In this document: piece after piece, positions 9,293 to 62,159 of the stretch | How positions within the stretch are numbered: position 1 is the stretch's first letter | Layout of the letters: each line of letters opens with the position of its first letter | Assembly (NCBI GenBank): GCA_008632985.1 | Contig: QPGO01000065.1 | Coordinates: 248,001 to 312,000 of the forward strand | Reading direction: 5' to 3' | From: Psammoneis japonica | Lineage: Eukaryota | DNA: 64,000 bases | The notes under the pieces: model-generated | What the model was told of the DNA's origin: nothing | Database searches by the model: none | The model's input: only the letters and a program-made list of their open reading frames with translations | Program-made: the position numbers and the translations under genes

Positions 9293-11531
<2,239 letters not shown>

Positions 11532-27031: not shown

Positions 27032-29483
27032 GGTTGGCGTGGATGTTTGGATGGATTCGTTTGACGTTGTTTACGTTTGGGAATGGAATGTTGCTGCTAC
27101 TATCTACTATCCTGGATCCGTCGTTGTTTGATGATCTCATCTATCGGCATAGTGATCCGGCTGCATTCCGTCCCAGCTTCGTGATGCCACGTATCCCCCC
27201 CGTTTTTAACCAAATACCCACCTCGATCGACTAACAGTATGCAGATACGTAGTTCAGCACACTTTTGGGGGCCTAGAATGGGGGTGAACGTTAGTTACTA
27301 ACCAATCACTGAATGTTGACTCTCGCACTTGCCCGTGTAATAAAGGTGCTCCACGAAAAGTTAGTTCTATTTTGAAACACCAGATACCACGAACAATACA
27401 TACCTGTTACATTCTCGCAAGGCATCTGTTTGAAGAGTATGAGACTGATAATGCTCATATCTTGTGTAATTTGTGGCTCTAGCTGGGGTCAAAGTCTAGC
27501 TAATTCTTCCAAAATTTCGAGTCGAATGGGTCATACGGGATTCAAGACACGTGACTCACTGTACAATTGAGCCTTTTTTCTCCTTTCTCGACTCCGAGAT
27601 TAGATGATAACATCAACACAAGACCTATTTCATGGCTATATTCTACTTTCTAATTTGTCTTTGACCTCGTGACAACTATATCTGACCTCTTTCATGATAA
27701 ATGGGTGAAGCAATCCACGAATGCTCATTTACAAGCCGCACTTTTCTATTTTCAGATTTGACATTTGTGTCTTTGCGATCAATCTAGAGTATATACAAGC
27801 CAGGGAGAAGCTCTATTCACTATTATTTATCATTCTATAGAATAACAGCATCAGAATATTTTGTCAACCATGTTTGACTGCTTTTTTCTTGAACCGTACT
27901 CCAACTTCATTCTTCATTTTCACTCTCATCCGCCCGACTCTCTCCCATTCAAGAATACTTGGCTGAATGCATTACAGTTGCATTATCAAATTCTTCAAAA
28001 ATATTCGTCTGGTCAACACCATTGATCAAATGGGCTTGACGATGTGACGACGACGTTGGATTCGTCGATGTGTGCTCATGCTAGGTAAGACAGTGAGAAT
28101 TGGCTGCGGCGGCAAGAAAGTTGAGTGAGACAACAAGTGGTGAGCCTCGGATACATTGATAACACCATTTTGATTTTCAACTTACTTGCCTTTTAATAAA
28201 CTCGGACTTTAACTCAGTGGGTGCCGAAAATCCGGCAAATGGTGAGTTGATGCGTCGTCTGCATGCAACATGGCGTCACGACAAAGCGAAACGGTATGTT
28301 TCAATATTTCTCGCCAAACTGTATGTCTCCGAATGGATGATTACAACGGTATATCGATGAGGGTCTAATAGAGCTTCTGTTGTAATGGTCCAAGAAACGA
28401 CGAATGTTTAGACACCTTATCTACCGCGTCAATGTCATCGTCGGCTCCGGCGGGTTTTTGACAATTTCTCCGTGTTGTCACCGCGGTGATGGTCTGTACG
28501 CTCATCCGGAGCGCGCCTGCCATGCCAGTTTCAAGTTACTTAAGGCCTGGGTCTCATAGCTGCGCTCGCTCGCTCTCGCTCTCAGATCAGATCGTCTGTC
28601 CAGCGATCCACATACAGTAGACTACATACATTGTGTATGTCTCTATCTCTCTGCTCTGTCTGTCTGTCCTCGTGGAATCTTCCCGCCACGGAGTTAGATC
28701 ACACCGGTGGGTGCCGGTGTTGTTAGAGCTCAACAACAGTTGTTACATGCCACAAAGAATGTTGCAAGGCCCAAATCAGTTCTTGTTGGTGCAAGATTGA
28801 TTGTTGAGAACTTGGTGACTCCTCGGTGTGCCAGGTGGCGTGGACTTCCCGCGCTGCGAGTTGCCCAGCAGTCGCACTCACCAGATTTTGGCCTGGCTGC
28901 AAGTGGATGGCTCACAATTTAGCCAGTTGTGTTTCTGTGAAAGGCTTTTGATTGAATGCCGCATTGCTGCTTGACAGCACAGAGTTGCTGCTCGCCCTCC
29001 TGCGCTGTCTGAGGCGTCATCTGCTTGGAGCACTCCCGGCTTGGGAGGTCTGAATGCAGTGCTCGCGTGTTGGAAGAGACGCACCGAACGCACTTTCTTG
29101 AGACATGCCGAACCTTTCAGTGCACTCGACTGTCGAAACAGGCTGAAAAAAGGACAGCTGCCGCCATGGGGCTCACACAGCTGTTCAATGCCACAGAAGT
29201 TGGTCAACTTTGGCAGGATTTTTTTCGCAGAATTCTACGTTGTGCACAGCATGCCATGCACAAGGTTTGAGTCACTCAAGTTCCAAGCACCTCATTTCAG
29301 CAGGAGACACAGACAGTGTTTGTTGATGATCAGTCAACACTTGCAAGCATGTCCAGTGGACAGCCTTTTCAGTGTGGCAGCTTTCTTGTTCCAATGACCT
29401 TGGAAGTGGAGTCACTTGTTGGCGAGGCCAATGCGCAGCTTTTGTGTGAGGAGTTGCACAAGTGTTTTCTGCGTGAGATGCAT

Positions 29484-29595
29484 TCCAGGTCTAGGTGGGA
29501 CCTCGCACCACTGAACTGTGACATCGACAGTTTTTTGAATCTCGTCGCATGTCGCGCACGTGGAATTCTACGTGATTTTTTTACATTTTGTGTCA
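29484..29595 (+). repeat. ~110-bp dispersed repeat, second copy at 38475-38588
   Basis: tccaggtct(a/g)ggtgggacctcgcaccactgaactgtgacatcgacagttttttgaatc... is shared by both sites. Confidence 0.85.
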
Positions 29596-29995
29596 CACCC
29601 AGGCTGTCCAGCAGTTCCTCCCAGCCAGATGGAAGAAGAAGAGAAAAGGAAAAGGAAGGAAAAAACAAACATCAACGAAGCTTTGACAGGGTGCGCTGCA
29701 GCAAAGAGTGGGTTGCTCCAAGGCCCAAGCACAAGGACAACACTTCTGTGATTTTTGTTTGCACAAAGTGCTGGGAAGAGAGAGAAGAGGTTGAGTTTGT
29801 TGCAATTGGGAGATGCAGTCACAAACCAGGCAAAGTGGGAATTGAAGTGAGGCAAGTTTTCCACCATGATGAGTGCTGCTGCAAACCATTTGACTTGAGG
29901 AAAGCTGCTCTCAATGAGAAACCATGGGCACGAAGTTCTGAAGTGCAACAAGGAAGAGAATCTGAGGACAACCTGATGCAATGGTGAACAGAATG

Positions 29996-32900
29996 GAAGG
30001 ACATGATGCTGGAAGAGAGGTGCCGCCAGGTGATCACATCAACTTTGGGAAAAAGGTGAAGGCTCTGGACAACAGAAGTTGCGAGTTTTTGCCCTCCTCC
30101 AAATGTGAAGAGGTGGACAAGTGGGAGCACTGGAGGGCCATGCTCAGATTCCAGCTCCACATGTCCAACTCCTTGAGCATGAGTGAGGAGCTGGCTCCTT
30201 TTGTGTTGGACAAAGAATTGTTCCAGGAGAAGCTGCTGCAGGAAGGCCAATTTTCCATTGCCATGATTGAGAAATGTGAGGTGAGACCCAAGAACCACCA
30301 CTTGAAGATTGCTGGTGTGTCTGCTCTTTTAGGAGGACACTCATTGCTGCCAGAAGGAGAGAAATGTGTCCAACAGTTGACACACAAGGATGCGTTCAAG
30401 TTTGAGAAATTCATGAAGTCAACTCATTGCAAGGAATCATGGGAAGGAAAATGGAGGTTCGCTCCTTCTTCTTTCCTGACCCCCTTGCATGGATTCAGGA
30501 GGCTCTTCATTGTGAATGATTTTCAGTTTGTTCAGGTCAATGCAGGCAGTGAATGCATTGTTTTCAAGAGCACAACCAAACATGGTGGAGAGACCTGGAG
30601 CATGCACAAGGACAAGTCATGGAGGACAAGCATCCACGGGCATGTGGGCCACATGCCCACATGCGATGCTGACCACAAAATTGACCACTCAAACATCAGC
30701 ACAGATCAAAGCCATGAGGGCTTGCACATGTCTGCAAAGCACCTGCTGGCGGCCTGTTCCAGCTCCAGGTGCTCTGCTTTTCATCACGCGAGAGGCCGAT
30801 TTTCTGCGCAGTTCAGCACAATTAACTCCTTCAATTTTGATCGTTTCGAAAATCGAAAGGTGAGTGCACACCCAAAAACACATGCAAAGTGCACACTTGC
30901 CCTTCGAGAGCTTGGGAATGACCTGATCTGGCATGTTTCCCCCTTGTGTTTTCAACACACATTTGCAAAAAGCGTTAAAAACAATCAGTCTTTTAAAATC
31001 ATTTGTGATGCAATCATGGAAAAAATGTCCCAATGCGTTCGACGCTCACCATGCAAACAGCACGACAATGGCCGAAATGCCATTCGTTCTTGAAAACTTG
31101 GTGGGGCAGCCTCCAACTTTTTTCAGGGTGGTGTCGCATTTGATGTGGGCAACAAACTCACGAAGAAAGTTGGAGGCATCCCCACCTCCATTGCGCTCAA
31201 CAAACAGCATTTCAGCCATTGTTGTGTTGTTTGCACGGTGAGCTCAGAATTCGCGCTCAAGCCATTTGAGCGTGTTTCTACAAATCACACGCATTCACAA
31301 AAAACACTGTCTTGTTTTGTCTGTTTTTCCAGTGAAATTTCCAAAATGCCCCCAAAAACAAGGAATTTCCCACTCTGAAGTCATTGCAAATGACTTTCAA
31401 GTGTGGGATCTGTGCACGCTGCAGGGCCCCACCCAATCTGGCGCCTGCAGTTAGAAAACAAAAAAAACCAATCACACAACAAGGCGCGAGTTGCAACAAG
31501 AAATTGATTCAATTGCTGAGCTGAAAAGTGCGGCAATGTCAGCAAATGACCCTGTTCCTCCTGCAGGTGGGCTGGGTGGGATGACAAACAATTTTGGTGA
31601 GCATGAGTCACAATCAGAAAAGGCTGATGAGCCAGGGTTTAGATTTGCCAGGAAGCCAAGTGAGAGTGAGCAAGAGGAGGAGGACATGGAGAAGCAGGAG
31701 GAAGAGGAGGAGGAGGAGGAGGTCCAAGATCCACCACCACTGCATGGTGCAACATTGACCCAGCTTGGAGGATCCATTTTTGGAGATGGAGTTCACCCAG
31801 AAGGTGTTGTCATGGATGCAAAGAGCAAACGCAAAAACGAGGCTGAGGACAGGTGCATTTGCCAAGAGGCTGGTGCCAAGAGTGCCTGCAAAACTTNNNN
31901 NNNNNNNNNNNNNNNNNNNNNNNNNNNNNNNNNNNNNNNNNNNNNNNNNNNNNNNNNNNNNNNNNNNNNNNNNNNNNNNNNNNNNNNNNNNNNNNNNNNN
32001 NNNNNNNNNNNNNNNNNNNNNNNNNNNNNNNNNNNNNNNNNNNNNNNNNNNNNNNNNNNNNNNNNNNNNNNNNNNNNNNNNNNNNNNNNNNNNNNNNNNN
32101 NNNNNNNNNNNNNNNNNNNNNNNNNNNNNNNNNNNNNNNNNNNNNNNNNNNNNNNNNNNNNNNNNNNNNNNNNNNNNNNNNNNNNNNNNNNNNNNNNNNN
32201 NNNNNNNNNNNNNNNNNNNNNNNNNNNNNNNNNNNNNNNNNNNNNNNNNNNNNNNNNNNNNNNNNNNNNNNNNNNNNGAAGGACATGATGCTGGAAGAGA
32301 GGTGCCGCCAGGTGATCACATCAACTTTGGGAAAAAGGTGAAGGCTCTGGACAACAGAAGTTGTGAGTTTTTGCCCTCCTCCAAATGTGAAGAGGTGGAC
32401 AAGTGGGAGCACTGGAGGGCCATGCTCAGATTCCAGCTCCACATGTCCAACTCCTTGAGCATGAGTGAGGAGCTGGCTCCTTTTGTGTTGGACAAAGAAT
32501 TGTTCCAGGAGAAGCTGCTGCAGGAAGGCCAATTTTCCATTGCCATGATTGAGAAATGTGAGGTGAGACCCAAGAACCACCGCTTGAAGATTGCTGGTGT
32601 GTCTGCTCTTTTAGGAGGACACTCATTGCTGCCAGAAGGAGAGAAATGTGTCCAACAGTTGACACACAAGGATGCGTTCAAGTTTGAGAAATTCATGAAG
32701 TCAACTCATTGCAAGGAATCATGGGAAGGAAAATGGAGGTTCACTCCTTCTTCTTTCCTGGTCCCCTTGCATGGATTCAGGAGGCTCTTCATTGTGAATG
32801 ATTTTCAGTTTGTTCAGGTCAATGCAGGCAGTGAATGCATTGTTTTCAAGAGCACAACCAAACATGGTGGAGAGACCTGGAGCATGCACAAGGACAAGTC

Positions 32901-33189
32901 ATGGAGGACAAGCATCCGCGGGCATGTGGGCCACATGCCCACATGCGATGCTGACCACAAAATTGACCACTCAAACATCAGCACAGATCAAAGCCATGAG
33001 GGCTTGCACATGTCTGCAAAGCACCTGCTGGCGGCCTGTTCCAGCTCCAGGTGCTCTGCTTTTCATCACGCGAGAGGCCGATTTTCTGCGCAGTTCAGCA
33101 CAATTAACTCCTTCAATTTTGATCGTTTCGAAAATCGAAAGGTGAGTGTACACCCAAAAACACATGCAAAGTGTACACTTGCCCTTCGA
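29996..33189 (+). repeat. 912-bp near-identical direct duplication (29996-30907 and 32278-33189) flanking an assembly gap
   Basis: The copies differ at only ~8 nt by eye. May be a tandem duplication or two haplotypes scaffolded in series. Confidence 0.9.
31897..32277. other. Assembly gap (381 N)
   Basis: Run of N. Confidence 1.
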
Positions 33190-33292
33190 TTTGGCAAAAA
33201 ATGGATTTGGAAAAAGTCAATTGCGCCAAATGCACAAATTTCCAAATGATGGGAATCGAACCCGTGCGGAGCACCTGGAGCTGGAACAGGCC
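33033..33292. mobile_element. MITE-like non-autonomous DNA transposon, 27-bp TIRs, 4-bp TSD TGGC
   Basis: ggcctgttccagctccaggtgctc(t/c)gc at 33033 and its reverse complement ending at 33292. tggc on both sides (33029-33032, 33293-33296). Removing it restores the reading frame (..KHLLA|TFTGEDVTRE..). Confidence 0.8.
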
Positions 33293-34817
33293 TGGCAACC
33301 TTTACAGGAGAGGATGTGACCAGAGAGGTGGGGCATGTTGGTGAGAAATTCACAGGCATTTGCAAGAATGCACAGTTTCAAGGATGTTCAGAACTTTGGA
33401 TTGAGGTGCCAGATGACAAGGAACTGGCTGATGGAGCAACAAAAGGCAGATGATTTGGAGAAACAGCTCAAAAAACAAGGCAAGGTGAAATTTGATAAAA
33501 TGTTGAATGCTTGTGTGGTTGTGCAGCACGTGGCAGACAAAACAATGAAGGAGGGGAAAAGGAGATGCGCTGACAATGTGGGGTCAACAAGGAAGTTGAG
33601 TGGACAGCCAATGCAAAAGTTGGAGATTCTGGCAAGGGAAACAAACAACTTGAGCAAACAGATGAGTGTGAAGAGGAGCAGCCACAGCTTGCAAAGAGCA
33701 GTCAGCAGAGGCAGGAGGAGGAGGAAACCAGTTGGCAGAGGCCAAATGCAGGGCTGAACCTCAAAGGACAAACAAAATGACAATGAGAAGAGTCTCCAGG
33801 TGTGAAGGCACAATTGACAAGGGCGCTCCATGCCTCCCCAGGGAGTTGCTCCATTTTGCTGCCAAGACTGGGCAGGACTTGGGTCCACAAAAATCAGTGA
33901 CTTCAGACCAATCCAGAAAGCAGCCTCTTGGGTGGCTGTGCACAACAGTCATGGCAAAGGGTGTGGGAAGGAGGGAGCTAAAACAGAAATCAAGGAAAGG
34001 AATGCAACGACAATGGGCTGGCATGGTGAGTTGCTTTGTGTTGGTGGCATTGTGTGGATGTGGGATTCAGAGCGTGCAACAAACCGTCACTGCCAAATGA
34101 CAATGGAAACATGAATGGATGAACATGACATTTCACAAAAACTGCAACATCAAAAAACGTTGTCACCGATGATTGCAGAAACAACAAAGAGGGACATTTT
34201 GTCACACAGTGGCGTGCAGGTGCTTTTTGCACTGGATCAGCAAATCATTGGTCTGGCACAGCTTCAACGGCATGCTTTTTTGATGGGATTGAAAACAAAT
34301 CAAAGTGTTCATTGCACTGATGTTTGATGCTTGAGGGGTGATTCGCACAGCAGAAATCACACGCGCGTGTTGCCGGATCAGCAAATTCCTGATCTCACAC
34401 TGTTGCCCTCAGTGGAAATTTTGGTGGATCTTCCACCCATGCGTTCAGCATTGCTGCATGGGAGCTGTGGCTGGAAACAAGTCTTGCAAGACGCGCAGGA
34501 CTTTGTGTGTTGTCAGGAAGTCTGAGTTCAATGAGCAAGTGGGTGGAGCAACAGGTGAGCAACATTTTGTTGCTCAGCAACTGTCTGTGCAACATTTTCA
34601 TGGTGAAGTCGCTCGTTCTTTGAGATGCTTGTTGTCGGTGGATCTTTTTGTGGTCGTCGAGATGAGGTGACAAGGGCGGTCTGAGATGTCTGACCCAGAA
34701 GCAAACAAACAAGCGACCCGAGAGATCATGGACAGACACAGCGCAAGCTGTCAAGAGATTCCAACAGCTTGGGAACCGTCAAGGAACGTTAAAATTGACG
34801 CCCGAACAAAAGCGATG

Positions 34818-34935
34818 CTCCACCCAGGGAGCAGTGATGCTCACAACATCATCAATGTCATTGTCACTCCACTCTCTGGAAGCCACAATGAGACAGCCCC
34901 TCGCAAGTTCCAGCTGCTCCCAAAAGATTTTACAG
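34818..34935 (+). pseudogene. Hypermutated copy of the HDAC fragment at 50212-50325
   Basis: HPGSSDAHNIINVIVTPL versus YPGSSDAHNIINVPITPL. Nucleotide alignment continues through cccctcgcaagttcc(a/g)gctgctcccaaaa. Confidence 0.8.
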
Positions 34936-37792
34936 TTGGTGGGCTGAGCGCATCCTGCAGCAGCTTTAAGTTGGCCATGACAGCAGGCACAAGAAAGGTC
35001 CACGTGTCGACATTCATGTCATTGTGAAGATCAAGATGAAGACTGCAGGCATGACACATTTGAGATCATGTTTGCGCGTCAAAGACGATGACAATGGAAA
35101 TGCACCCAAGAAAGGTCTTGTCCATTCAATGCATGAGCAACAAGATGCCCCTTGCCTTCTTGGTTTGGATTGGTCACGTCTGCTCCCCGTTTTGGGCAAA
35201 TGCAAAGGCACAAAGGAAAATGACGCTGACTTTTCTGGGTGCTCTGCATCGAGTTTGAGCATGGCACTGCCAGGGTCGTTTGTCTTCGTGCAGCTGATGG
35301 GCACCGACAGTGCACGTGTGTCGATGCTTCTTGTCTGGCAGTGCCACTGGAGTGGGCGGGAATTCATTTGAGCTGGCGGAAATCACGTCAAAGCACCGCC
35401 GCGAGATTCTGTTGATGCCAAGGCCAAAACTGTGTGCTCGGAAGGCAAGCATCTCAGTCTTTTTGAAGCACATGATGGTCTTTGACGCACACCAAGAATT
35501 CCGCGATTTGCAAGATGGGCAATGTCTGCACCATGCTTTTGCTCATTTTCTCTTGTTCCTGCAATGATGGCGAGACATGCTGCAAAACACAGCGGAGAAA
35601 TCCGCGATTGCAAAAGAGACAGCTTGAGGAGTGCACCCAACAAGTCTTGAATTCACTCTTTGACAGCAAGCGGGATGGGATCACTGTGGGTGTTGTCTGC
35701 CAAGCCTTGAGTCCAACTGGCTTCCATCAAGGACATGGATGGATTCGCACGCACGTGTCGGTCAGAGCAGCTCCTCGAGGCTGGCTTGTGGATGAGGGTG
35801 AACGCCGTCCGAGCGCAGGCCTTGCATCCCACCAGAAATGAGAAAATGCTGCACCGATTCAATGCTCGGCCCTTCCTTGATGTTGGCGGCGCTTCGGGTG
35901 AGAAGGACCGCCCCTGTCACTGCGCTCTTCTTCCTCGGAAGAATCGTCGGGGCCCTGCGTGAATCGGGGTCATGCGTGTTGGACCACATCAATCATGCAG
36001 CAAATTCCAGCTGCCTTGCAGCTTTGGTTTTACTTGAGGAGTGATGCAGTCATTTTTTTTGTTGGCCATGTCTGTCATTTGCAACATTCCCCGCAAAGAC
36101 GTCCAGCAAAACGCCGCTTCAGAAGCGAGAATTCGCAGAGACACCAAAAGTCAAAACAATGACACGACGTCATTGCAGCAATGAAACTCGTCGACAAAAG
36201 GGACACCACGTGGGAACCATAGATCCAATGAAATGTTGGGCGTCGACAGTTGAAAGAAAGTGATCCTCGGACCGATGATCATGCAAATCTCGCCGCTGTC
36301 CATCCAAGAATGCAGGAATTACGACCACACGTTCTGCCCCACTCTGTGATGCAGAGCCCGCAATGCTTGCCAAAAATCATGCAAGTCAGATGATCCAATC
36401 ACCATTTGGAATGTTTGCACGTGAGCACCGTGGCAGATGAGAGGAAGCAGCATGATCAAAAAAGGCTGTTGTCATCTTTTGGATGAGCAAATCACGGGTG
36501 GAGCCATCACAACCGATGACACTGGCAGAACTTTGCTCAGTTTCTTTCACGTCTCCAGCCAGTGATGGCTGCTCGTGTGCTCGTGCACAGCACACATCCA
36601 ATGAAGCGCAAGTTGTCTCAGTCAGACGAGAAATGATGTGCATCCGCGATGCTCCTCGACTGTGTTTTTTCCCATGTGCTGTCACACCAGATGAGCCAAC
36701 GCAAGTGTTGATTGAAGAGGTGATGCTCTGGTGCTCACCCCATCCAATTCAAAATGTTCTGGATGCTCAAACACAACATGCGTTTTGCCACGTGCCGGTG
36801 GACCAGCTGTGCATGGGCTTGTGGCAGTGTCCTGTGTTAATTGCGTTCTCTAGAATCCAAACTCGGGTGGACCGCCCATCGCATGTCCCAGGAGCATCTC
36901 AGAAAATGCCGGCATGTTGCTCTGGACTCTGTGACGTCCTGCATTTCTGGCGATCAACAAGATCTTGGTTTCCACTTAAATCGTGCATTTTGCACCAACT
37001 GTTCTTGAAGGCTGCATCTCAGCCCGTCTTGTTTCCTCAGCAGCTCATTCTTGTTGTGATCTGTCAGCAACATGACTTGTCACTCAGCATCGCTTCTCAT
37101 GTTCACTCCATGCATGACACCGACATTTGTGTCGGTTGAAGAACTCACACATCTCTCAGCCTTGCACGACAAAAGGCCAACACATGCCGAGAGTGTTGCA
37201 CATTCAAACCATTTTTTTTTCGCCAATCGAATCGAATCAAGACAATGTCACGACTCATTTGTGAAAACTGGTGAGTTGTCGTCCAGTCAACCATCAACTC
37301 GCTTGCAGCGAAAGACACCCGATGCCCCGACATCGCACATCGTGCAAATGCAGCAATCTAGACAGAAACGTGTTGCAGGAGTGCCAGACATTGTCACGAG
37401 CAGAAGATCTCTGACAACAAAGTCGAGAGGCTCCTTTCCAATTCAGAGTGCTGTGATTGTGCGTCGCTTCCAACATCATCATGGGAATCATGGGGATTGT
37501 GCTGTCCGCGGTCGCCAAAAATGTCACAGGTGTCCTCAATTCCGGGTGACCAGGGAGTCCTGCATGGAGTCCTGCACAATTTTTGTTCCACATGTCTTTC
37601 ACAACACACCGCAAAGACCAACCATGAGCACCGGCTGCACTGTCACCATCACCCGCCATGCGGCAAATGCCAAGCGACGTGCAAGCGAACCACCAAAAGA
37701 GGCTGGTCGCAGGCCCACCACAAGCACTTGACGTCGCAATGGTGAGCTCAGCATGTCTGGTTGGGGGGAAAGATAAAGAACAATCATCCTTC

Positions 37793-38158
37793 TGCACTGT
37801 GCTCAAAGAACGAGTGCAAATAAAAGCAGAACGAAGTTCGAAAAGTGAAAATTATGAGATTGAATTTTGCTCTGTGATTTTTGGTTTCTCCGAACAAGTT
37901 CTCAATGGCCCAAAGCTTCTGTGCTGCTTCTGCAGACAAAAGGCCTTTCGGAGAACATGTTCGTGACAACAGATTGTCCGGATGCGATTGCCATTGACAC
38001 GCAAGATGTCAACATCGTCAATCGATGCACCTGCAATTCTCGACATCCGATCAACTCTGTGTGATCGTTCTGTCCTTTGTGCGCATCCACGACTGTGGTG
38101 CGATTGACACACAGACAACATGCAATCACAAACATGCATGCAACAGTCGCGTGCTGCA
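37793..38158 (-). repeat. 3' LTR (hypermutated copy)
   Basis: 366 bp, aligns to 44778-45141 with nearly all TA changed to TG/CA. Confidence 0.9.
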
Positions 38159-40279
38159 CTCCCTCCCCATTGCACATTGCCGGCAGAGTCATTTGTTGAG
38201 TGGATTGTTCGATGGACATTGACAGTGTCAACAATGTCTCCACGTTCACTGCATTGTGCCACCGGCAATGGACTGTTGTTGTTTTACACAGGCCAGCACA
38301 CACAGGGCCGTTTCATTTTCCAAATGTCTTTCGAGAGTGTCATGGTTTGTCTCACGCTTTATGTGCACATGTGATGAACATGAATGTGCTGTGGTGTTGC
38401 GTCGAGCATTCTCTCTGACATTGTTTTGTTCATTTGGACACACGGACCAATTGTCCTGCTGTTCTTTCGACGCGTTCCAGGTCTGGGTGGGACCTCGCAC
38501 CACTGAACTGTGACATCGACAGTTTTTTGAATCACGTCGTATGTCACGCACGTAGATTTCTACATGATTTTTTCGACATTTTGTGTCATTTTACGGTGCA
38601 CTCATTGAGCGATCCGTCCAACAACTTCTGACATTTTTTGTTGCAGTGCGATTCCATGATGTCACAAGAATCGCGCAGGGCAGGCGCATTTGCAAAAACG
38701 TCGAGTGGCAAGAGGCATGATTGTGCCACAAACTTGGCCGTTTATTTGATGTTGAAGACAAACACATCCATTGATTAAATTCTCGCACTGCGGAGCTCGC
38801 ACGTGGAATTCTACGGGCCCAATGTCACACGGAGTCCCACCTGGGGCTGGAACGCGTCTTTCATGGCATCGATTGCACATGGCATTTTGCCCAGTGCTCG
38901 ATGTGCACACTTGGTTGGCATTCACTTGCTTGCTTGTGGATTTCATGCAGTTTGGCGGGCTCACTTTGTGTGCCATGTTGCTCTGCTGCACTGCCACGTT
39001 TCTTGAGTGCTTGGCAATTTAACGATGGTCAAGGACACGACCATTTCGTCTTGACAATCAATCCTGTGATGGTTGTGAATTCCATTGTGGATTTTTGCAC
39101 TTCAACCATCTGTCAGTTGGGTTGCAATCGTCATTTGGACGTTTCTTTTTGACACGCCGGTGTTGTTTTGTCATTCCGAAGGCACTGGTTTCGTGCACCA
39201 AGTGGATGAATGTCCTTTTTTCTTTTCTTTTTCTCAATCTTTGGCACATCCGATCCCGTGTGTCGACATGACAAGTTGTTTGTGTCTTGCCTCGTACATT
39301 GTACAGTACAACCATGCGGGTGTTGTGAGATTGTCTTTTGCCAGTGTGAAGTGGATGCTGTAATGTCGCACACCAATCTGTCACTGTTTTTTCCTAAATC
39401 GTCCTTTAAAAAGGCGATTTTATCCTTATTATGATGTGAGCATTTTTCGATCTCGCTCGCCTCCACGAAAAGTGTTCGTATGATATGTCGCGTCCGACAA
39501 TTTGGAGGGAAAGTCTTTATCCCGTTTTAACGGTAGGACATTGTCGTAGGATTCAATTTTTTTCATAGTAAGTCGGCTGATCGCGTCTATCGCGACGATG
39601 TTCGCCTTGCCCTCGATGTATTTTAATTCGGGACTGAAGTTTTCTATTGTAAGTCGTCAACGTATGACTTTGTCCGTTGTGTCTTATGATCCGTATATAT
39701 ATAAATGTGTTGGCCGAACAGTATATTTCGGAATTTTATAAGTGTTTTCACTATGGACAGAAGTTCTTTTTTCCGTTGTAACGTATAATATTGAAATACG
39801 TGTATGATAGCAATATAGTTTTTGATTTGATACGCTCCTTATTTTCTGTGTTAGACCGACTCAGAGGGACAGTACACCCAATTCCTGAGGGACACGACAC
39901 GCATACAAGTGCCATACACAGACACATAATCAATCGCACACAACACGCACAATTTCCAAGGGACACGAAACCCTCACAAAGTTTTACCAAGTCAATTTGC
40001 ACGCAGCAAACTGCGGCGCAGCACAATGATGCGAGCCGCCGGTGTCCCACTTTACGGCGTGATATCTCTATGATACTTTCACCGATTTTCCCGTTGCTTA
40101 TTTCATTCTTAACATAAATTGTACAATACATCCAATGACTTTGATTCCATTGTGTGTCATTGTGAATTATGGATTTCTGTTTTGTTTGAAACCATGCAGC
40201 AATTTCAAATTTGGAGAAGCGCGCACTAGGGAAAGCGTGTACGAAGGATGCAGGTTGTGCAGCATTTCGATTCCCAATG

Positions 40280-40520
40280 GTCGATCCGAAACTATTGGCA
40301 GTGTCACACCATCGTATGTCGTGTGACATGTGATAGAGCATGTGATGTAGTAGTTAAAATTAAGACTCCTGCAATGAATGCCAGTGGTGCAAACAGCAAG
40401 CTAATCTGCCGTCGATCCGAAACTGCCAGTGGTGTCGCATGATAGAGCATGTTAGGTTGTTAAATTTGAGACTCTTACAATGAACACTAGTGATGCAAAT
40501 AGCATGCTAATCTGCTGTCA
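40280..40520. repeat. Two-copy degenerate tandem repeat (~110-130 bp)
   Basis: gtcgatccgaaact..tgatagagcatgt..gttaaa..agactc..caatgaa..tgcaaa.agca.gctaatctgc occurs twice. Confidence 0.7.
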
Positions 40521-42100
40521 ATGTGACTGGAGTTTTTAAGCCGCCGCCCTCTTGCCCTCTTTCTCAATCTTGTTCATCGTCGTTTGCAGTTTTTTCCAAT
40601 GCCGAAACAACAGCTCCCACTTTGTTTTCCAATTTGGATTTTCCATCAACAACCTTCCTCTCCTCACTTGTGCTAGCTTTGAAGCTGCGAGTTGATGCTG
40701 CCTTCTTTTCATCAACCAGCTTGTTGCACAAGGGCACGGCTTTGTTGTGCTGCTCAACCAAATTAAAAAACACTTGAGAGACACGGATTTCAACATCTTG
40801 CAAGCCCTGTCCCACCAAGCCATGTAGTTGTCATCATCCTTTGCTTGAGGACGATTGCTGCCATTGAGATGCTCCTTCTCCTCACTTGCAAACAGCGCAC
40901 GCGGGCCCTTGCTTTTAGAGATTTGTTGAGTTCATCATGCTCGGATTTTTTGTAAAGTGCTCCATGCCCCAACTTCTTCTTGAGCACCATGTGCACACCA
41001 GAATCATGTTGTGCCTGCGACTCAGGCTTCCAATGAGTCCCCTTGCGAGCACCTTCGCGTTCAATCTTGCACTCCATTGAGAAAGCACAGAATTGCCTCA
41101 TCAATTTGCTGCAGTTCGGCACAGTGAGAGTCTCTCCACGCAGATGCTTTCGTTCCAACTGATGGACTGGTGGATGTCCTGTTTTTTTGGCAAAAACGTT
41201 AAATGCTGCGACCGCCGTCTTGTAGCCATCTTCGGTTTGGTCTGCTTTGTCTTGCATTTCTGCGCATGCTTGGAGCATCATGGATTCGTCTTCGCGCTCT
41301 TCTGCCTCATCCTCATTTGAATCTTCCAAATGGGAGGCCTCAAGCTCAGCAGCAAGTCGATTGACGTGGTCCACCTCACTCGCTTTTGCCTCGTTGCTCG
41401 GCTCGTCGCTGGACTTGTCCTTCTTGCATGGATTGTTGTGATGCGAGTAGAAGATTGTGCCTGCTGCAGTGGTTGCTGGTGGTTCCAACCCGTCCTGGGC
41501 CTGCGCAGTTGGAGCATCTTTTTCATTGATGAGAGATGGCATTGTGGACAAATGATGCCGACAGCGCACGCCACACAAGTCCAATCGCAACGAATCGCAA
41601 CAATGGCAATGAAAACGGTAGATTCTAGGCAGTGCAACAGCAGCAACGAGCGAGCGGCGGCAGACTGCTGCACTGCATGGCAGTGCGGTGGTCGGACCAT
41701 CTGTCGTCCGTCGCAGGGTGACCCGTCTGGTCGCCGGCTCCACCCGTCGATTTCCGGCCGATTTGCGAGGGACCCGAGGGACACCCTGTCCCTCGGGGGC
41801 GCGCTTCGCGCGTCCCTCCCGCTCCGCGGGACAAATGTCCCTCCAGGGACGCTCCGCGTCCCTCCAAAAAAAATTTTCAGAGACTTTTCGTCCCGCACTT
41901 GTGCTTTTGCCGTTTGACCTTTGTTGAGGTGAATCTGGCCAGCATTGCACAGGAGATCGTTGAGACTGCATGTCTCGACAGCAGCGGCGTGTGACGACGA
42001 GATGTTGCAGTGTTCTTTGCGTTTTTCTCATGTTGCGATTGCTTGAATCGCCTCCATTTTCTTTGCAATCGATTGCATGTCCTTGCGCATGGAAGTCTTG
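40520..42100 (-). mobile_element. Nested insertion in the gypsy pol region carrying a decayed ORF (possibly Crypton/tyrosine-recombinase N-terminal type)
   Basis: Non-gypsy sequence between RT segments. ORF from ~41543 (MPSLINEK..TEDGYKTAVAAFNVFAKK..) is loosely like YR core-binding regions. GC-rich hairpin cluster upstream. Family assignment is only a guess. Confidence 0.35.
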
Positions 42101-44760
42101 ACAATTAATTTCAAGTTGAGTGGTGAAGGGCTTTTGTTGTCAACCTTCAAAGTGGCTGCTCCAGTCGCACGAATGCCGCATCAAGTGTTGCTTGCACAGG
42201 CGACATTTTGAAGTCACTTTTTGTCAGGTGCAGACGATCATGCGTGGTTGTTCTGACAACTTCAAACCTGTCATGAGTTTGCTCATGTGTTGTTCAAAAA
42301 TGTCTGGGGCTCTGTGGATCCTCATTGGAAGTCTGCAGTGCTCATTTTCTCCCTGCGGCATGATTTTCGTGTGAGCACGACGTGTGCTTTTTTCATTTGA
42401 CATGGTGGCATTCCACACTTGAATCAAATGGATCACATGTGTGAAACGTTCTTGCTTCAACGGCATTTCCTGAATGTTGGGTGAAGGACACACCACGTGT
42501 GCGAACCTTTTGCTGAGCTTCTGAGTGTCGGACGCGGTCGAACTTGACCTGTTTTCTTCAGACAATGAGTCTCAGAGCGACTCGTTCAGAGCAATTTTAT
42601 TTTTGAGACTTCAATCTTTCACAATGGGTCAACTCCTTTTGATTGGACGCCTCCAAAGACTGTGATGGGAGAAGGTTCTCACGCGTCATGGAGTCGCGTC
42701 AGATTTTCCACGATGAGATCCACTGATGCTTCCCATGCATTCGTCTGAGGAACTTTTCAAAAAGATTTCAACCTCTCAAGAAGAAGATTGAGTTGGTTGT
42801 GTTCATTTGGGTTAGATGCATCGCCGTGGTTGTCACTTGATTGGGGTCGATGGCGCGACAATGTGAGTCGAGGACCATTGGTTCCGTCACTGACTCCATT
42901 CACGGCGTCACATTTTTCAATGTGATCGGTTTTCAGCTTGAAAACATCGGCATCGAAGAGTGTGTGAACATTCTTCACAGGGCAATTGCTTCTTCCCATT
43001 TGACTTCTTCATTTCCGCAGTCTGATGTGATCACAAGACTGGACATCAAGTCGCGTCCCATGATCATGTCACTCGACCTTGAAGAAGATTTTGTGTCATC
43101 GACACATCCTGTTTGAACATCAACAAGTCTTAAAAATTTGCACAGTGAGAACTGAGCTCGGTTTCTGCTGTCAGCCGTGAAGAGCTCACCCTTGGTTTCC
43201 CAAGTTTTTTGGTGGCGAAATGTTTTGGTTCTCAACTTTCGCACGATTTTGCGTAAAATCATGGGCTGATGATGTTCTTCATCGAGAGAACACGCAGAAG
43301 CTTGTTTTTTGCTTTTCTCAGAGAAGCAGTCATGCAGACAGCGAGAACAGGACTCGTGTGACATGCTGTGATGTTTTTTCTGGGTTTCCAGATGTCCTGT
43401 GACGCGGTGTGCTCCTCGATCGGTGCAAATTTTTGATCGGACTCGATCGGTTCAATTTTTCTAAATTGACAGTTTTGTTCGTCAAGCGTTTTAGAGTCTC
43501 AATTTTTGCTCTTGTTTTCTCGTTCCTTTGCCAAGGAACTTGCTTTGACAGTTTTTGTGAACTGCCCAGTTCACAGTTCAGCTCAGCTCCTCTTTCACAG
43601 AGGCATTTCTGCTCTCGTCACGTTCCCGCGCGATTGCCATTTAGAGCATCATGTTTTTTTTGGGTCTCTTTCAGAGCCACCCTTGCACTCTTTTGCTCTT
43701 TTTCTTGTTCAAGGAACTTGCTTTGAGTGTTTTTTGAACTGCCTGATCAATCATGACGTCCAACTCTTTTTGTTGTCGCGACAACACGTGCGATTGCCAT
43801 TTGAACTGCACCGTTTTGGATCACATTCACAGTGTCCAAGGCGTTCTTTTGCTGGCTCATTTTCAGAGCAGCATTGATCCGTGATGCAGGCATTCTTTTT
43901 TCAAAGATTGGACCTTTTGCTCACTTTGGATTGTTCTGGTGCCATGTGGGAGACCATTTTTGGAACCAAATTTGGAACCTTTTTGATTTTGGAATCAACA
44001 GCGCTGTCAGAGCCTGATTTGACATGTTTTTTTGTCATGGACGTCCTCGCCGACCTCCAGACGACTCAAACCTCAATCAGCTCGTCAAGGGTGTGATCCA
44101 ACAATCCAACATTTTGGACAGCAGGCTGATGCTGCCATCCTTGCGGTGCGAGTGACAGCCAACAGCTCACGGCTCGGTTTCCCGCTAGATTCAACTTAGA
44201 ATCGATTGAAGGGTCGCATGGACGCTCTTCATTGACCTCTTGGGTCGAATGGGCACTCTCTTGCTGCTGAGAGCCTTTGGTTTCTTCAGATCATCTCGAA
44301 AAAAACAGCTCTGATTCTGAAGTGCAGTTCCTCGGAGGACATGAGTTGTGAGACACTTGAGGTGCTTTTGAATGGTTCCCTCTTGCTCTTTGGACTCGAG
44401 ACTCGTCGATTCGGTCTCAATGACTCTTCAATGGTCTCTCCTTGCAAAGTAGATGCATTTCTCGGATCTGATCGACTCGGGACTTGCACTCTCTGCAACC
44501 ATGACTTGGTGTAGATTTTTTGACAATGCGGTGCACTTGTAGAGTCCTTGATCCTTGGATGCTTGGAATGGACCGCATTGGAACGAATCTTGTCATTTGC
44601 TAGACGAAAAACAGCGTTCCATCTTGAGGTGCTGCTCGGATTGAGCTTCTTCCACTCGGAAATCGATTCCAGCAGAACTGGCGCGATTCGTCCCTGTTTG
44701 TGGAAGAATTTACAAAGGCACATTAGTTAAAATTTTCATTTTCCGTGCTTTTTACCTTCT
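40520..44760. other. TpA-depleted domain C (CpG largely retained)
   Basis: Sparse TA and abundant CG. Confidence 0.85.
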
Positions 44761-44777
44761 GTGGTGTGTATACACAA

Positions 44778-45141
44778 TGCACTATGCTCGAAGAACGAGT
44801 GTAAACGAAAGTAGAACGAAGTTCGAAAAGTGAAAATTATGAGATTGAATTTTGCTCTGTGATTTTTGGTTTCTCCGAACGAGTTCTCAATGGCCTAAAG
44901 CTTCTGTACTGCTTCTACAGACAAAAGGCCTTTCGAAGAATATATTCGTGACAACAGATTGTCCGGATACGATTGCTGTTGACACGTAAGATGTCAACAT
45001 CGTCAATCGATCGTATTTGCAATTCTCGACATCCGATCAACTCTGTGTGATCGTTCTGTCCTTTGTACGCATCCACGACTGTGGTACGATTGACATATAA
45101 ATAATATATAATCATTATATATATATAAGTCGCATACTGCA
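44778..45141 (-). repeat. 5' LTR (largely unmutated copy, TA-rich tract intact)
   Basis: 364 bp. Retains a tatataa-type tract at 45094-45128. Confidence 0.9.
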
Positions 45142-45999
45142 CTTCGACGACGGATCGAAAAGGTCGTGCAAACATTGATGTCGGTTCACTGTACGATACA
45201 GTAGTAGAAGTATGTACTGGTTTTGTACGGAACGGTCGGAGACATTTCTACATAAAGGAGGGAAGACATTTCTACACTTAAAGGAGGGAAGAAGGGTCAT
45301 TGCTCTTTGTTACGTTTGCTGTCAGTTGACACTTTCCTCATGGATTCTCATGGATCCTCTTCATACAAATCTACGAGCGGAACTGAGTAGGGCGGAGCAA
45401 GGTCATAATTACAAAAAGTCATTTTCATATACTGCGTTTGCTTCGTATAAAGTACGAGAGAAAGTCATTCAATTGACAAAACGGTCATTTTCTCAGTCAT
45501 CCACATGAATCCACATGGTATAAATCTACGTACGAGAAATCAACGGTCAATGCAAAGAGTCATTCTCTAAACTCCGATTCCTTCGTACAATGTACGTGAA
45601 AAGTCATTGAAAATTTCAAAATTTCCATGAGGATGACTGAGGATTCGTGAGGATCCGTGAGGATCCGTGAGAAAAAAAACACACGACACAAACCCGACCC
45701 CCCAGGTCGAGCTTAGCATCCAACGCCGTCGCGATCGCTGCTTTCTGTGGTTGTACTAGTACGTAGGTGTCGTGTGACTGAACCGTCACTTCAGCTGGGA
45801 TCGAAGACATGTCGAGACCGCGACGCTGTCCTAGCCGACGGACAGTGGTCCTTGCTACGACAAGAACAAGAAACCCTGCCAAATCATCGATCTCTTTGGA
45901 TTGTTGAATGCTCTTTCTCTACCGGAACGCTATATCATCACGACATGCCATCGTCTTGTGGTATCGGTGACGGATGATATGGAGAGGTACCAGATAGTG

Positions 46000-46800: not shown

Positions 46801-46939
46801 ACTCTCAGATTTCGTCTTATCTATATCTCTCTCTCTCTCTAGCTAGTTCAAAACTAACTTCACGTCTTCTTCCCCAGATTTAATGATTGAGGAAGGGGTA
46901 ATGGCAACTGAATACTGAACAAGACACATTGTCAAGAAC

Positions 46940-52850: not shown

Positions 52851-55800
52851 CAATTCATTTGCCAAAATCCATCATCCGAATTGATCAAGCTTCCAATCAT
52901 ACGGTACATAATGAAAGCTCTAGCGTAGAATAAACGTTACATCCACTCAATTCCGTTAGGTTCAAGGTTTCTTGTACGTAATGAAAATCGATTCAAGCAA
53001 GGCGAGGCCGCTTGGTTTCGACACTGCCACTGCCATCGACAGGACTGAAGAAGTGCTTGGCAGTGTGTTGATGCTTCAACCTGCAAATTCTGCAGCAACA
53101 CGCAATGTTGCAGTTGGTGCATCTGCCTCTGCAGAGAGCTTCCCATGCATGGAGGGGCATCGGGGGCCTTCAGGAACCAGCTCACCAACATCCAATCCCC
53201 TGACAACCTTCCCCCCACAGCCATCAGCAACTCATCAATGGCAGGGACCCAGCCAGCAAACCCCCCATGCTGACTCCAGCACCATTGTCAACACCCACAC
53301 ACCTGCCAAAGGCCAGCCCCACACTTCATCTCCAACTCCTCCATCTTCATGCCCTGTTTTAGCTTCAGCACCATCATCTCCAACACAAGGTCCAGCCCTT
53401 CTGATGCCAGCTTGTCCTCCATCTGGAAAATGTTGTTGCTCTTGTTCAGAGTTGTTCTGCATTTGACAAGGGCAAACCTTGTGTTCTCATGTTCTCAACA
53501 AGTGCTCATCAACTGTGTTCAAAAAGCCTTTTCAACAACTGAGCCAATCAGCAAAGTGGGAAACAACAATGCTCACTTGTCTTGCTGTGCATTTGATCTT
53601 GACAAGATCAACTTTGCAAACATTGACAACAACTCTTTTTACAACCCACATTGTTCCAACAATTGAGCCAGTTGGCAGCAAAGCAGGAAATGACAATGAA
53701 TTAAATTTTTGACTTGCAGAGTTTTGCACTTGACAACAGCACATTTGAAGCAACACGCTGTTGTGACTCATGTCTGTCAATGCCCACATTAATTCACCCC
53801 ATTAATTTGCTGTTGCCCTCCTGGCTGTGTGTTGCTTGCAATTTGATTTGTGCACTCTGTGATTTAGACTTTCTGCACTCAATTGTGTTGCAGTCTGTTT
53901 CTTGCTCTCTTTTCTCAAGCCCTTTGCTGTCTGCACATGATGCCACCCTGTTGCAGTTGCACTTGCATGGCACTGCAGTGCTCTGCAGTTCTGGTGTCCA
54001 CAAGGATCTTCTGTTGTTTCACACTGTGACCTCACACACTCTTGCTTTTGTTGAAAAGTGTGCTGGGTCAGCCAAAGCTTTGCTCACAAAAAAAGAAGAG
54101 GGTGCAACAAAAATTGTGAGTTCTGCATGTGTTTCATTTTGAATCATCTTTGCTTTGGTGCAGCTTCTGTTTGCCTTTCTGCATCCCCTGCAGCACTGTC
54201 TTCCCATCTTGCTCAGCTTTCATGTCAACATGCCTGAGCTCCAAGATTGGCAAAAGTGTCAGTTGTTTGCATTGTTCTCATGCGCGCATGCTTTCATGCC
54301 TCGCACATCATTTCTCTTGCCTCAACTTGCCTCCCAACTTTGTTTGGTTGTGCCCAGCCCTTTGCTCTGCTGTTGTTGCCTTCTTGCAATGCTGTCATTG
54401 TCAGGATGTTGGGCGGGCTCTCTTGTGTTTGCATTTTGTGTCTTGTGAGGCAGCGATGATTTGCTGTTGCACCCACACCAAGCCAGTCAGCCAAGGTGAT
54501 CAGCATCTGTGTCATTGTTGCACTGGCCATTTTTTTACTCCATGTTTGCCTGCACTGTTGCAGATTTCAATGATTTGAGCTGACTCAAATGAGTGACATT
54601 GGTTTTCTGCAGTTTGAATGCTGTTTTTTACAAACTGTTGCACAGGTGACACCTGGATGCAAAACACCACTCAAATCAGATTGGTTTTGCTGTTGTGTCT
54701 GCAGAAGGTCAATGTCTCAGTTTTTGCCACACTGGTGTGGTGTCTTTGCAGGACAGCAGAGCAGATGCCCGATGCAGTCAGTGCACTTTGTTTTCATGCA
54801 GCACAAGGCAGCAGAGCAAGACAAAGACTTGCACTTGCAGCCACTCTCCTCCTTTGCATGTCTCCTGGCCCAAGAAAAAAATGCTTGCACAAATCATGGG
54901 AAAGACAGTGCTTTTTCATTGTGACCACCAGCTCTTCCTCCACTGGACAAAGCTTCTTGGTGGTTGCAAAAGCCCAGCTTCTTCCATTTCCTCCAAATCC
55001 AGTGCATCAAAGTGGCACATGCCATCATCATTGTCAAAGAAACCTGCATCATTGTCGCTCCTTGTCAATGTGGGAAGAGGACAAGTGAGAACAGTGAAGA
55101 GCAAGAGAGCATGTCAAACTTCTTGCTAAAAAAAAGCACATCATCATGGAGTGGTGCACCAACGTTGAACAGGCTCCAAGTTGTGCTCAGTCTCCCGCAA
55201 GTGCTAAAAATCACTGTGGCCATTGCAAAGTCACTCACCACCTTGTTCATTGGCAGAGACATTGCCATCATTCACCCATTGAGATTCTCGGACACTGGCA
55301 GGAGGGAAAAAAGGGGGGGTGGCAAAAACACAATGGATCACCGTCAAGAAGGACAGGGGCCTGAATCCATCAGCACCCAAGCCAAGGGAGTGGTTGACAG
55401 ATCTGACTGACCCAAAGAGCACAGTGCAGCAGCATTGCTTGAGAGGGGCCAATGGGAGAGGGAGGTGAAAGAGCACTGGGAACATGTGCTGGGTGTCCCT
55501 TTTCACTTGATGTTTTGCTTGTTGCTCCTGAGCCTCAGGGCAGTGTGATGGAGCAACAGCTGTCAAGAAGAAGGCTGGCAAAGAAAACTGCTGCAGCATG
55601 TCTTGGGCATTCTCTTCATTGTCAGCGCATGCATTTTTATTTGCTTTGTTTTCTTTGATTGTTTTGCTTGATTCAACAGAGAACAAGGTCCGAACCTGAG
55701 CGCGACTGTGTCCAAGGAAATCCAAGTCATCGTGCCCACCCTTTTCACTGTGCACGGCAAAGTGGAGCTCCTTGTTTGTGCATTTGCAACTCAAGCAGCA

Positions 55801-61582: not shown

Positions 61583-61661
61583 TTCTGCCATGTTGGCCAC
61601 AGTTTGGCAAACATTGCTGTCACCTTCTGCCATGTTGGCCACAGTTTGGCAAACATTGCTG
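61583..61661. repeat. Short tandem duplication (38-bp core, 42-bp period)
   Basis: cttctgccatgttggccacagtttggcaaacattgctg occurs twice. Confidence 0.9.
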
Positions 61662-62159
61662 CTGTCACATTGGTGCTTTTCTGATGTCTCCTTGTTGTCT
61701 GTCTCACTGAATTCCATGAAAAACACAGGAACTGCATCAGGGACTGCCAGTTGGAGCCAAGTGCATTTCTGGTGGCTGGGGGTCTCAACTCACATCATTG
61801 AAAAGCTGCAGACCAGGGCTGGGCCAGCCATTGTTGGGGAGAATGTCCTTAGAAACCAACATTCTGCTGAAGCAAAGTCAACCATTGGGAGGGCTTGAGA
61901 GCTCCAACTCCATGTCCAAGTCTGTTTTTGGCACCAGCTGTTGTTGTGTTGGCTTTTTGGATGCCTCCATCAGTGCTTCCAACACATTTCAAAGCAAGGC
62001 CAGAACATGGTCTGTGGAGCAACAGCACTGCCGTGTCTGGTCAGTTGGGCACCATGTTGATGCTTTGGGGCAGAGCTTTGTGTGCACTTGCAGCAGTGAG
62101 AAGCAACAAGCAGCTTGCAAACTTTGCACAACATTTGGAATTCAAAGGAGCACCACAAG

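Follow-up and report, generated by a model that had tools for sequence, protein, structure and literature searches.

The locus described here raises a specific question: how have the two long terminal repeats (LTRs) of one retrotransposon, which are identical at insertion, come to differ chiefly at TA dinucleotides? The retrotransposon is a decayed Ty3/gypsy element in a 64-kb stretch of Psammoneis japonica DNA (contig QPGO01000065.1, positions 248,001 to 312,000), hereafter the window, in whose coordinates all positions are given. Our reading, to which we assign a probability of roughly 80%, is that a TA-directed process would have acted at the DNA level after a single insertion, rewriting TpA as TpG or CpA in one LTR, most of the element and its left flank. 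The positions of the main features are collected in Table 1.

Both LTRs start with TGCACT and stop with TGCA, and the two are 91% identical. Their alignment spans 367 columns, of which 324 are identical, 39 are substitutions and 4 are gap columns, with two small indels between the copies. At the 27 TA sites of the right LTR that can be aligned, the left LTR has TG in 11 cases and CA in 14, giving 25 changed sites; it retains TA at one and has 'AC' at the last, within an ambiguous AT-rich tract. The reverse case, in which a TA of the left LTR faces CA or TG in the right, is found at 0 sites. CG is largely retained, with 18 of the 22 CG sites of the right LTR kept, 2 turned into CA, 1 into TA and 1 lying on a gap. 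Substitutions occupy 27 of 54 positions within TA, 4 of 43 within CG and 8 of 266 elsewhere (TA versus other positions, Fisher p = 1.7e-17). With the right LTR as ancestor, 32 of the 39 substitutions are A>G or T>C, comprising the 25 TA-site changes and all but one of the 8 outside TA and CG; the other 7 consist of 4 at CpG sites, 2 in the ambiguous AT tract and one G>A.

The two outcomes, TG and CA, are intermixed along the LTR (15 runs, 13.3 ± 2.4 expected); both strands were hit, and there is no sign of a single-strand sweep or of clustering. The loss of 25 of 27 sites corresponds to 2.6 hits per TA site in one lineage. We estimate the rate at TA to be about 90 to 700 times the background, the background being taken as 8 changes in 266 sites, or as 1 in 266 if the seven A/T-to-G/C changes are counted as off-target hits. 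The ratios TA/AT and (CA+TG)/(AC+GT) are 0.08 and 1.67 in the mutated left LTR compared with 0.71 and 1.04 in the right. A first-pass annotation of this DNA had put the loss at about 20 of about 21 TA sites, which is an undercount. Every substitution it gave as an example is present in the alignment, its impression that few CpG and few other positions differ agrees with the 4 and 8 found, and the align-and-tabulate check it had proposed returns 39 substitutions concentrated at TA. It had also remarked that a TATA-like tract was destroyed in the mutated copy; as the loss of a promoter element this is not supported, since in the orientation of the element the AT-rich tract lies at the outer 5' end of the LTR, which is not the place for a TATA box.

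That the two LTRs derive from a single insertion event is supported by two observations. The same CTTC stands on both sides of the element, and one public-run contig carries the empty-site form, linking 37774 to 45148 with 7373 bases skipped and one CTTC only. The first-pass annotation had assigned the LTRs to one event from the shared CTTC, and the empty-site contig strengthens that assignment. A few letters and one 3-base indel set this contig apart from the window, so that it may be a diverged allele or a paralogue.

The gypsy identity of the element, also claimed at first pass, is upheld by its domain order. The interior has 61–79 stops per frame, TGA for the most part, and its sole Pfam match with stops read as X is RT_RNaseH on the minus strand (E 3.8e-5, just under the cut-off). 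The gypsy-type polyprotein P0121, which was found with the RT_RNaseH piece, aligns by tblastn to the minus strand in the order protease-like, reverse transcriptase (RT; 42532–42260, E 4e-9), RNase H with linker (39772–39435, E 9e-17). The protease-like match at 43430–42993 is weak (20% identity, E 0.14) and the protease step in this order depends solely on it. Further Ty3/gypsy features are the TG...CA termini of its direct LTRs, the short duplication of the target and the polypurine tract at the 3' LTR. Since the element lies on the minus strand and the polypurine tract adjoins the left LTR, the left LTR is the 3' LTR. No integrase match was obtained in 38159–39435, and no clear tRNA-complementary stretch that could serve as primer-binding site was seen next to the 5' LTR; both are heavily mutated regions. 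About 1.9 kb of additional, unrelated GC-rich DNA separates RT from RNase H. A 449-residue open frame without a Pfam match (40790–42139, minus strand) lies there in GC-rich (55–59%), TA-free DNA and may represent captured sequence or a nested insertion; where TAA and TAG have been erased, open frames are expected to be long.

The mutated LTR belongs to a far larger domain. By dinucleotide scan, nearly TA-free DNA makes up about half of the window (1–6.4 kb, ~28.75–44.7 kb and 53–64 kb), and the gene-bearing DNA at 7–28.6 kb and 44.8–52.9 kb has normal TA. Comparison of 31,462 bp of depleted with 29,722 bp of gene-bearing DNA gives dinucleotide frequencies of 0.37% versus 4.30% for TA, 2.41% versus 5.68% for CG and 21.2% versus 14.6% for CA+TG. 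The corresponding observed/expected (o/e) ratios are 0.06 versus 0.63 for TpA, 1.73 versus 1.17 for CpA, 1.67 versus 1.17 for TpG and 0.41 versus 1.00 for CpG. The losses of TA (3.9 points) and CG (3.3 points) approximate the gain of CA+TG (6.6 points), and base composition is the same in both. Decay of CpG thus accompanies TA loss in the same tracts, and it is slower. Within the gypsy copy CpG o/e is still 0.5–1.1 where TpA o/e is mostly 0.03–0.22, the outer tracts have CpG o/e of 0.00–0.66, and between the LTRs 4 of 22 CG sites differ (3 substituted, 1 on the gap) against the 25 of 27 TA sites changed.

The middle tract is ~16 kb long and its edges do not coincide with those of the element. 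It reaches ~9 kb to the left of the element, and at its other end few TA occur as far as 44,601 and many from 44,711 onwards, placing the right LTR ~80 bp past the edge. Counts of TA per 100 bp are 0–2 (4 in one bin) at 28.8–39.3 and 40.6–44.7 kb versus 0–13 (mostly 4–9) beyond 44.7 kb. Because the tract runs ~9 kb into the left flank and ends ~80 bp before the right LTR, the unit affected is a stretch of chromosome and not the element.

These edges bear directly on whether the changes might predate integration, through ADAR-like RNA editing or APOBEC-like deamination during reverse transcription. Retroelements are classic targets of such enzymes, and ADAR favours a 5' U (as cited in Mettrop et al. 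2026, bioRxiv 10.64898/2026.01.13.699255). APOBEC3 G>A hypermutation and ADAR hyperediting resemble the present case in being deaminase attacks on retroelements with a dinucleotide preference, but their substrate is single-stranded cDNA or RNA prior to integration, and their marks would fall on one strand and appear in both LTRs. In the present element one LTR is untouched, the outcomes divide into 11 TG and 14 CA, the tract extends ~9 kb past the element, and a host-derived pseudogene elsewhere is also affected. Editing before integration is already contradicted by these observations and is the least probable of the alternatives we considered. The first-pass annotation had dismissed it as well, and the untouched LTR, the hits on both strands and the affected ~9 kb of flank bear that out. 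Instead, the twin LTRs suggest that the process acts in place on chromosomal DNA.

Three lines of sequence comparison show that TA was lost, TA becoming TG or CA, and not gained. Firstly, the right LTR resembles gene-bearing DNA in composition (TpA o/e 0.78 versus 0.63) and the left LTR is abnormal (0.07). Secondly, a 113-bp copy in the middle tract has a paralogue at 50216–50326 in normal DNA; going from the normal to the depleted copy, 4 sites change from TA to CA/TG, 5 sites from CG to CA/TG and 1 site the opposite way. The third line, which we judge to be the decisive one, is an outgroup test with a COG6-like pseudogene in the third tract. HMMER found 63 homologues of it among 1.84 billion representatives (best E 7.6e-22, mostly 40–55% identity), and 33 of these, those of P0122–P0158 longer than 400 residues, were aligned. 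At the well-supported consensus Tyr columns the pseudogene has Cys or His in 6 of 6 cases (codons TGT, TGT, CAT, TGC, TGC and TGC). Indeed, there are 0 Tyr in its 196 residues, and one consensus Arg (CGA) has become a TGA stop. All three lines agree with the first-pass choice of the left LTR as the mutated copy. The pseudogene is host-derived, so that the process is not limited to transposons and anything within a tract is rewritten.

Other sources of polarity were less productive. A per-site read comparison across the family was mixed and uninformative among the rows listed, and a 29-base LTR word scanned in metagenome contigs gave no match. A family LTR consensus would itself be confounded if most copies are mutated. 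A valyl-tRNA synthetase (ValRS) fragment was considered as a host-gene outgroup across the insertion and rejected, there being no ValRS signal left of ~46.1 kb. Native avoidance of TA by the family was rejected on the ground that the twin LTRs differ, and biased gene conversion on the ground that it cannot drive CG to TG/CA.

The same evidence bears on the reversed polarity. In repeat-induced point mutation (RIP), C>T changes at CpA yield TpA, and a RIP-like cytosine deamination at CpA/TpG could have made the TA sites of the right LTR, with the left LTR being the original. Read backwards, nearly all 39 differences are indeed C>T or G>A, which matches both the usual mutational bias and the preference of RIP. 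However, it is the right LTR that has ordinary composition and the left that is abnormal, and the reversal needs 31 kb of natively TA-free DNA, including a pseudogene with Cys/His where its homologues have Tyr. It also needs four CA-to-CG differences, and the host is a diatom, not a fungus. The outgroup test already contradicts this alternative, and we consider it very unlikely.

The 117 TA that survive in depleted DNA are distributed non-randomly by context. Relative to normal DNA, survival is 0.9% for RTAY (4 of ~450 expected), 5% for RTAR, 8% for YTAY and 30% for YTAR (69 of ~227; chi-square p = 5e-28). This fits a preferred target of A in 5'-T-A-Y-3'. With such a target, RTAY would be the most and YTAR the least depleted, since RTAY would present a favoured site on each strand, YTAR on neither. 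Within the LTR, all 6 unambiguous RTAR sites were converted to CA, a seventh being ambiguous, RTAY sites ended as TG in 9 cases and as CA in 6, and the changed YTAY sites as TG twice and CA once. The largest trinucleotide gains are those of TGC (+16 per kb) and GCA (+15 per kb).

Sequence duplication does not appear to be the trigger. A 525-bp pair lying 6.8 kb apart in gene-bearing DNA (94% identity) has diverged with a mixed spectrum and retains TpA o/e of 0.40–0.47 and CpG o/e of 1.1. This linked duplicate is untouched; therefore duplication alone is not the signal, unlike in RIP.

The best explanation would then run as follows. A Ty3/gypsy retrotransposon would have inserted once into the diatom nuclear genome, generating the CTTC target-site duplication. 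Afterwards a DNA-level process would have turned TpA into TpG or CpA, by A to G on either strand, over a ~16-kb chromosomal tract that covers the left flank and, from the 3' LTR on, most of the element, ending ~80 bp short of the 5' LTR. Identical at insertion, the LTRs would have recorded this process, with 25 of 27 TA lost inside the tract and none outside. The process would favour the A of T-A-Y on both strands and would have gone near to saturation. A slower decay of CpG in the same tracts, presumably by deamination of 5-methylcytosine, would also end in TG/CA, and because both processes end there G+C barely moves. Such CpG decay is familiar from methylated transposons; it shares the tracts and the TG/CA end, but cannot remove TA and is slower. 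Targeting would follow the chromosome stretch, probably silent, methylated chromatin, and not sequence duplication. Of this account, the substitution pattern with its context rule, the edges of the tract, the polarity and the single insertion are demonstrated by the sequence data; guidance by chromatin and a role in defence are both plausible.

The enzyme would most likely be a TadA/ADAT2-type DNA adenine deaminase. In nature TadA acts on the A in a U-A-C-G loop. For TadA/ADAT2 and the adenine base editors derived from them, this substrate fits the T-A-Y preference seen here, TAC and TAT being the most depleted. The natural family acts on tRNA, whereas the process in the window would be a DNA-level one and its enzyme is putative. 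The parallel with ADAT2 follows the proposal of the authors who described TA-specific hypermutation in Bigelowiella, discussed below.

Several observations weigh against this explanation. The twin-LTR contrast is that of one LTR pair, which by itself carries no polarity and can be read backwards, as described above, and 7 of the 8 changes outside TA and CG likewise run from A/T in the right to G/C in the left LTR. The COG6 outgroup test sits in another tract (53–64 kb) than the LTRs. The element's own RT/protease homologue, P0121, reaches at most ~30% identity and yields no more than isolated cases (Y to H, Y to C, I to M), and the YIDD motif is not recognisable in the element RT. Modification of T in R-T-A, for example by oxidation, would match the sequence data equally well as deamination of A in T-A-Y. 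An island of normal TA (1.3 kb, 39.3–40.6 kb) lies inside the element; it could be a gap between separate mutation tracts, the product of gene conversion from an intact copy, or a site of local protection. The island is colinear with the C-terminal part of RT and RNase H, and holds the only part of the element still recognised by Pfam. Finally, the family is very abundant, with 7832 contigs at ≥80% likeness, which brings in the chance that one LTR was assembled chimerically.

This last point belongs to the most serious rival, namely that the LTRs are not sisters diverged in place and that chimeric assembly, or ectopic conversion or recombination, replaced the right end and the island of a TA-free element. 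Word depth is 23,400 and 40,185 over two LTR bins, and gene conversion would neatly explain the unmutated island. What counts against it is, above all, the same 4-bp duplication at both ends together with the empty-site contig. Moreover, outside TA and CG the LTRs differ at just 8 of 266 positions and by the two small indels, compared with 5–20% among most family contigs (1170 contigs at 99+% likeness, 1969 at 95–99, 2869 at 90–95 and 1824 under 90). The right flank past the LTR is normal too, so a normal right LTR needs no special event. Even if a chimera or conversion had occurred, the flank and the COG6-like pseudogene would still show a DNA-level process acting in place. We therefore regard this rival as unlikely.

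A sequencing artefact would be a different kind of account, in which base calling systematically misreads heavily modified bases of silent chromatin, taking A for G at TA and C for T at CG, in DNA that in truth still carries both dinucleotides. Both types of miscall are known for modified bases on nanopore, and the pattern does follow chromatin-like domains. Against this, short public-run contigs repeat the TA-free stretches almost exactly, with 1 difference in 277 bases at 36992–37268 and 5 in 262 at 41088–41349, although the three public runs come from one sample, possibly the assembly's own source, and are hence not independent. A sized gap of 381 N moreover suggests a scaffolded, non-nanopore assembly. 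We give the artefact very little credence, and retain the DNA-level process acting after insertion as the explanation of the locus.

A precedent exists in the chlorarachniophyte Bigelowiella natans, for which the abstract, Results and Discussion of a preprint describe TpA-specific A:T>G:C hypermutation of integrated viral DNA (Mettrop et al. 2026, bioRxiv 10.64898/2026.01.13.699255). In mutation-accumulation lines, two integrated viral regions received 231 of the 302 nuclear mutations; 230 of these 231 were A>G or T>C and all 230 lay at TpA. The process is described there as arising de novo in the chromosomal DNA of growing cells, episodically, in some lines only, at ~6e-7 per site per generation or ~1000 times the background. 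The same sections report 124 clusters of windows that are poor in TpA and rich in CpA+TpG, find low-TpA coding sequences to be enriched in reverse-transcriptase and DDE domains, and propose an ADAT2-like DNA adenine deaminase as candidate.

To judge from those sections, the two cases share a spectrum of almost only A>G/T>C (here 32 of 39), centred on TpA and ending in TpG or CpA according to strand. They also share a regional action that leaves neighbours untouched, with long-term loss of TpA and gain of CpA+TpG. They differ in host, a diatom (stramenopile) here and a rhizarian there, and in targets, which in the window are an LTR retrotransposon, its flank and host-derived pseudogenes, with no viral genes seen, rather than integrated viral regions. 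Depletion here is near-complete (o/e 0.06 over 31 kb) compared with 0.45 in the large viral region of B. natans. The coupling to CpG decay and the T-A-Y rule are seen here, and neither of these, nor any diatom, is mentioned in the abstract, Results and Discussion on B. natans. The evidence is also of a different nature, being mutation in real time there and a natural twin-LTR experiment here. Together with the interleaved TG and CA outcomes, the extension of the tract into the flank and the COG6 polarity, this precedent supports the central proposal of the first-pass annotation, which was near-saturating, TA-specific change of chromosomal DNA after integration.

The likeness to RIP in filamentous fungi is one of form. 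Both involve near-saturating, dinucleotide-specific transitions that arise in place in repeats and destroy transposon genes, but RIP runs the opposite way, from CpA to TpA, and leaves AT-rich DNA, whereas here TpA is erased and G+C is unchanged. The signature of RIP, an excess of TpA with a deficit of CpA+TpG, is the reverse of what the ratios of the mutated LTR (0.08 and 1.67) reveal. RIP is also triggered by duplication, and here the 525-bp linked duplicate is untouched.

Taken at sequence level, the window indicates that diatoms have TA-targeted DNA hypermutation of the B. natans type. Beyond the B. natans preprint we found no other report of TpA-targeted hypermutation of silent DNA in full-text searches, and none for diatoms. 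The process itself is thus not unprecedented; what is new here is the diatom host, the T-A-Y context rule and the evidence for targeting that follows a domain. The presence of this signature in a diatom, close to saturation in about half of the window, suggests that the process is widespread among major marine algae, much of whose repeat DNA it may shape. Independent evidence for action on chromosomal DNA after integration, evolutionary and not from culture, comes from the twin LTRs, and tract edges within one element indicate targeting by chromosomal domain. The T-A-Y rule makes a concrete biochemical prediction for the enzyme, and as some diatoms are genetically tractable the mechanism could become testable there.

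There are practical consequences as well. Transposons and pseudogenes in such tracts escape homology searches, with Pfam recognising almost nothing in 31 kb, and open reading frames are inflated because TAA and TAG vanish. Dating by LTR divergence would be badly wrong wherever the process acts. More tentatively, and with the odds in our view somewhat against it, diatoms and Bigelowiella may share one ancient, dedicated defence system, a nuclear T-A-Y DNA adenine deaminase guided by silent-chromatin domains and not by homology. If so, TA steps, and with them Tyr codons, TAA/TAG stops and AT-rich promoter elements, would be erased from transposons, integrated viruses and anything else in the domain. 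Combined with CpG decay, such a system would drive DNA to a TG/CA-rich end state free of TA and CG, with G+C unchanged. It would mirror fungal RIP and be widespread in the SAR (stramenopile, alveolate and rhizarian) supergroup and perhaps beyond.

Table 1. Features of the window, with the evidence on which each was placed (o/e, observed/expected ratio).
Feature	Position	Strand	Basis	Remarks
Second TA-depleted tract	1..6400		dinucleotide scan	TpA o/e mostly 0.00–0.06, one bin 0.24; CpG o/e 0.07–0.66
Middle TA-depleted tract	28750..44700		dinucleotide scan	left flank, left LTR and most of element; edges near 28,744/28,920 and 44,601/44,711
113-bp copy in depleted DNA	34822..34934	+	pairwise comparison	paralogue in normal DNA
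Target-site duplication, left	37789..37792		read directly	CTTC
Left LTR (3' LTR)	37793..38158	-	alignment, dinucleotide scan	mutated copy; TpA o/e 0.07, 2 TA remain
Polypurine tract	38159..38168	-	read directly; role inferred from position	GGGGAGGGAG (minus-strand letters); adjoins 3' LTR
Internal region	38159..44777	-	stop counts, Pfam, tblastn	decayed Ty3/gypsy element
Normal-TA island	39300..40600		TA counts	within element; 4–12 TA per 100 bp versus 0–2 (one bin 4) in neighbours
Right LTR (5' LTR)	44778..45141	-	alignment, dinucleotide scan	unmutated copy; TpA o/e 0.78, CpG o/e 1.63
Target-site duplication, right	45142..45145		read directly	CTTC
Third TA-depleted tract	53050..64000		dinucleotide scan	TpA o/e 0.00–0.13; CpG o/e 0.00–0.45
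COG6-like pseudogene	56561..57148	-	Pfam COG6_C, E 1.4e-7	in third tract; outgroup for polarity

The depleted tracts contain little else that can be recognised. Pfam searches of read-through translations, with X at stops, gave nothing in 1–6600, 28700–31896 and 32278–37792 and only COG6_C in 53001–64000, and a 375-residue open frame in the left flank had no match when searched for homologues. In 1–6400, minus-strand read-through translations repeat motifs of the form G+ELW..G / DGKL.F, which look like those of a repeat protein and have no Pfam match; the region may be another decayed host gene in TA-free DNA. On either side of the 381-N gap stand two 912-bp copies (29996–30907 and 32278–33189) that are 99.1% identical. 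Of their 8 differences, 2 are TA versus CA, both in G-TA-C, and 4 are CpG versus CpA/TpG. The copies may be two haplotypes set in tandem by the assembler, and if so these differences would be segregating products of both processes.

The host is, on the evidence of its ThiC gene, a diatom and hence a stramenopile. The ThiC open frame is 91–93% identical to diatom proteins and 81–82% to those of another ochrophyte and red algae, and a maximum-likelihood tree places it in the diatom clade with support of 100/99, leaving its place within that clade unresolved. The database contains no protein identical to it. Besides ThiC with a thiamine pyrophosphate (TPP) riboswitch, the gene-bearing DNA encodes a nucleotide-sugar transporter, SAICAR synthetase, a Myb protein and a methyltransferase. 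It also holds dispersed repeats (13140–13914 versus 18729–19004 and 20150–20679; 82–94% identical) and a short tandem array with a unit of ~75 bp (23000–23300), all with normal TA and CpG. In the TA-normal DNA to the right of the element, a ValRS 3' fragment (46100–46840, plus strand) comprises Anticodon_1 and the C-terminal arm and is interrupted by frame breaks and in-frame stops. No upstream part of it was found, and it is probably a pseudogene fragment. The TPP riboswitch (8998–9104, minus strand; Rfam RF00059, 59.7 bits) shares its strand with the ThiC frame and follows it downstream after ~190 bases, which probably puts it in the ThiC 3' untranslated region. The ThiC frame itself (9293–11531, minus strand) apparently has two or three short introns.

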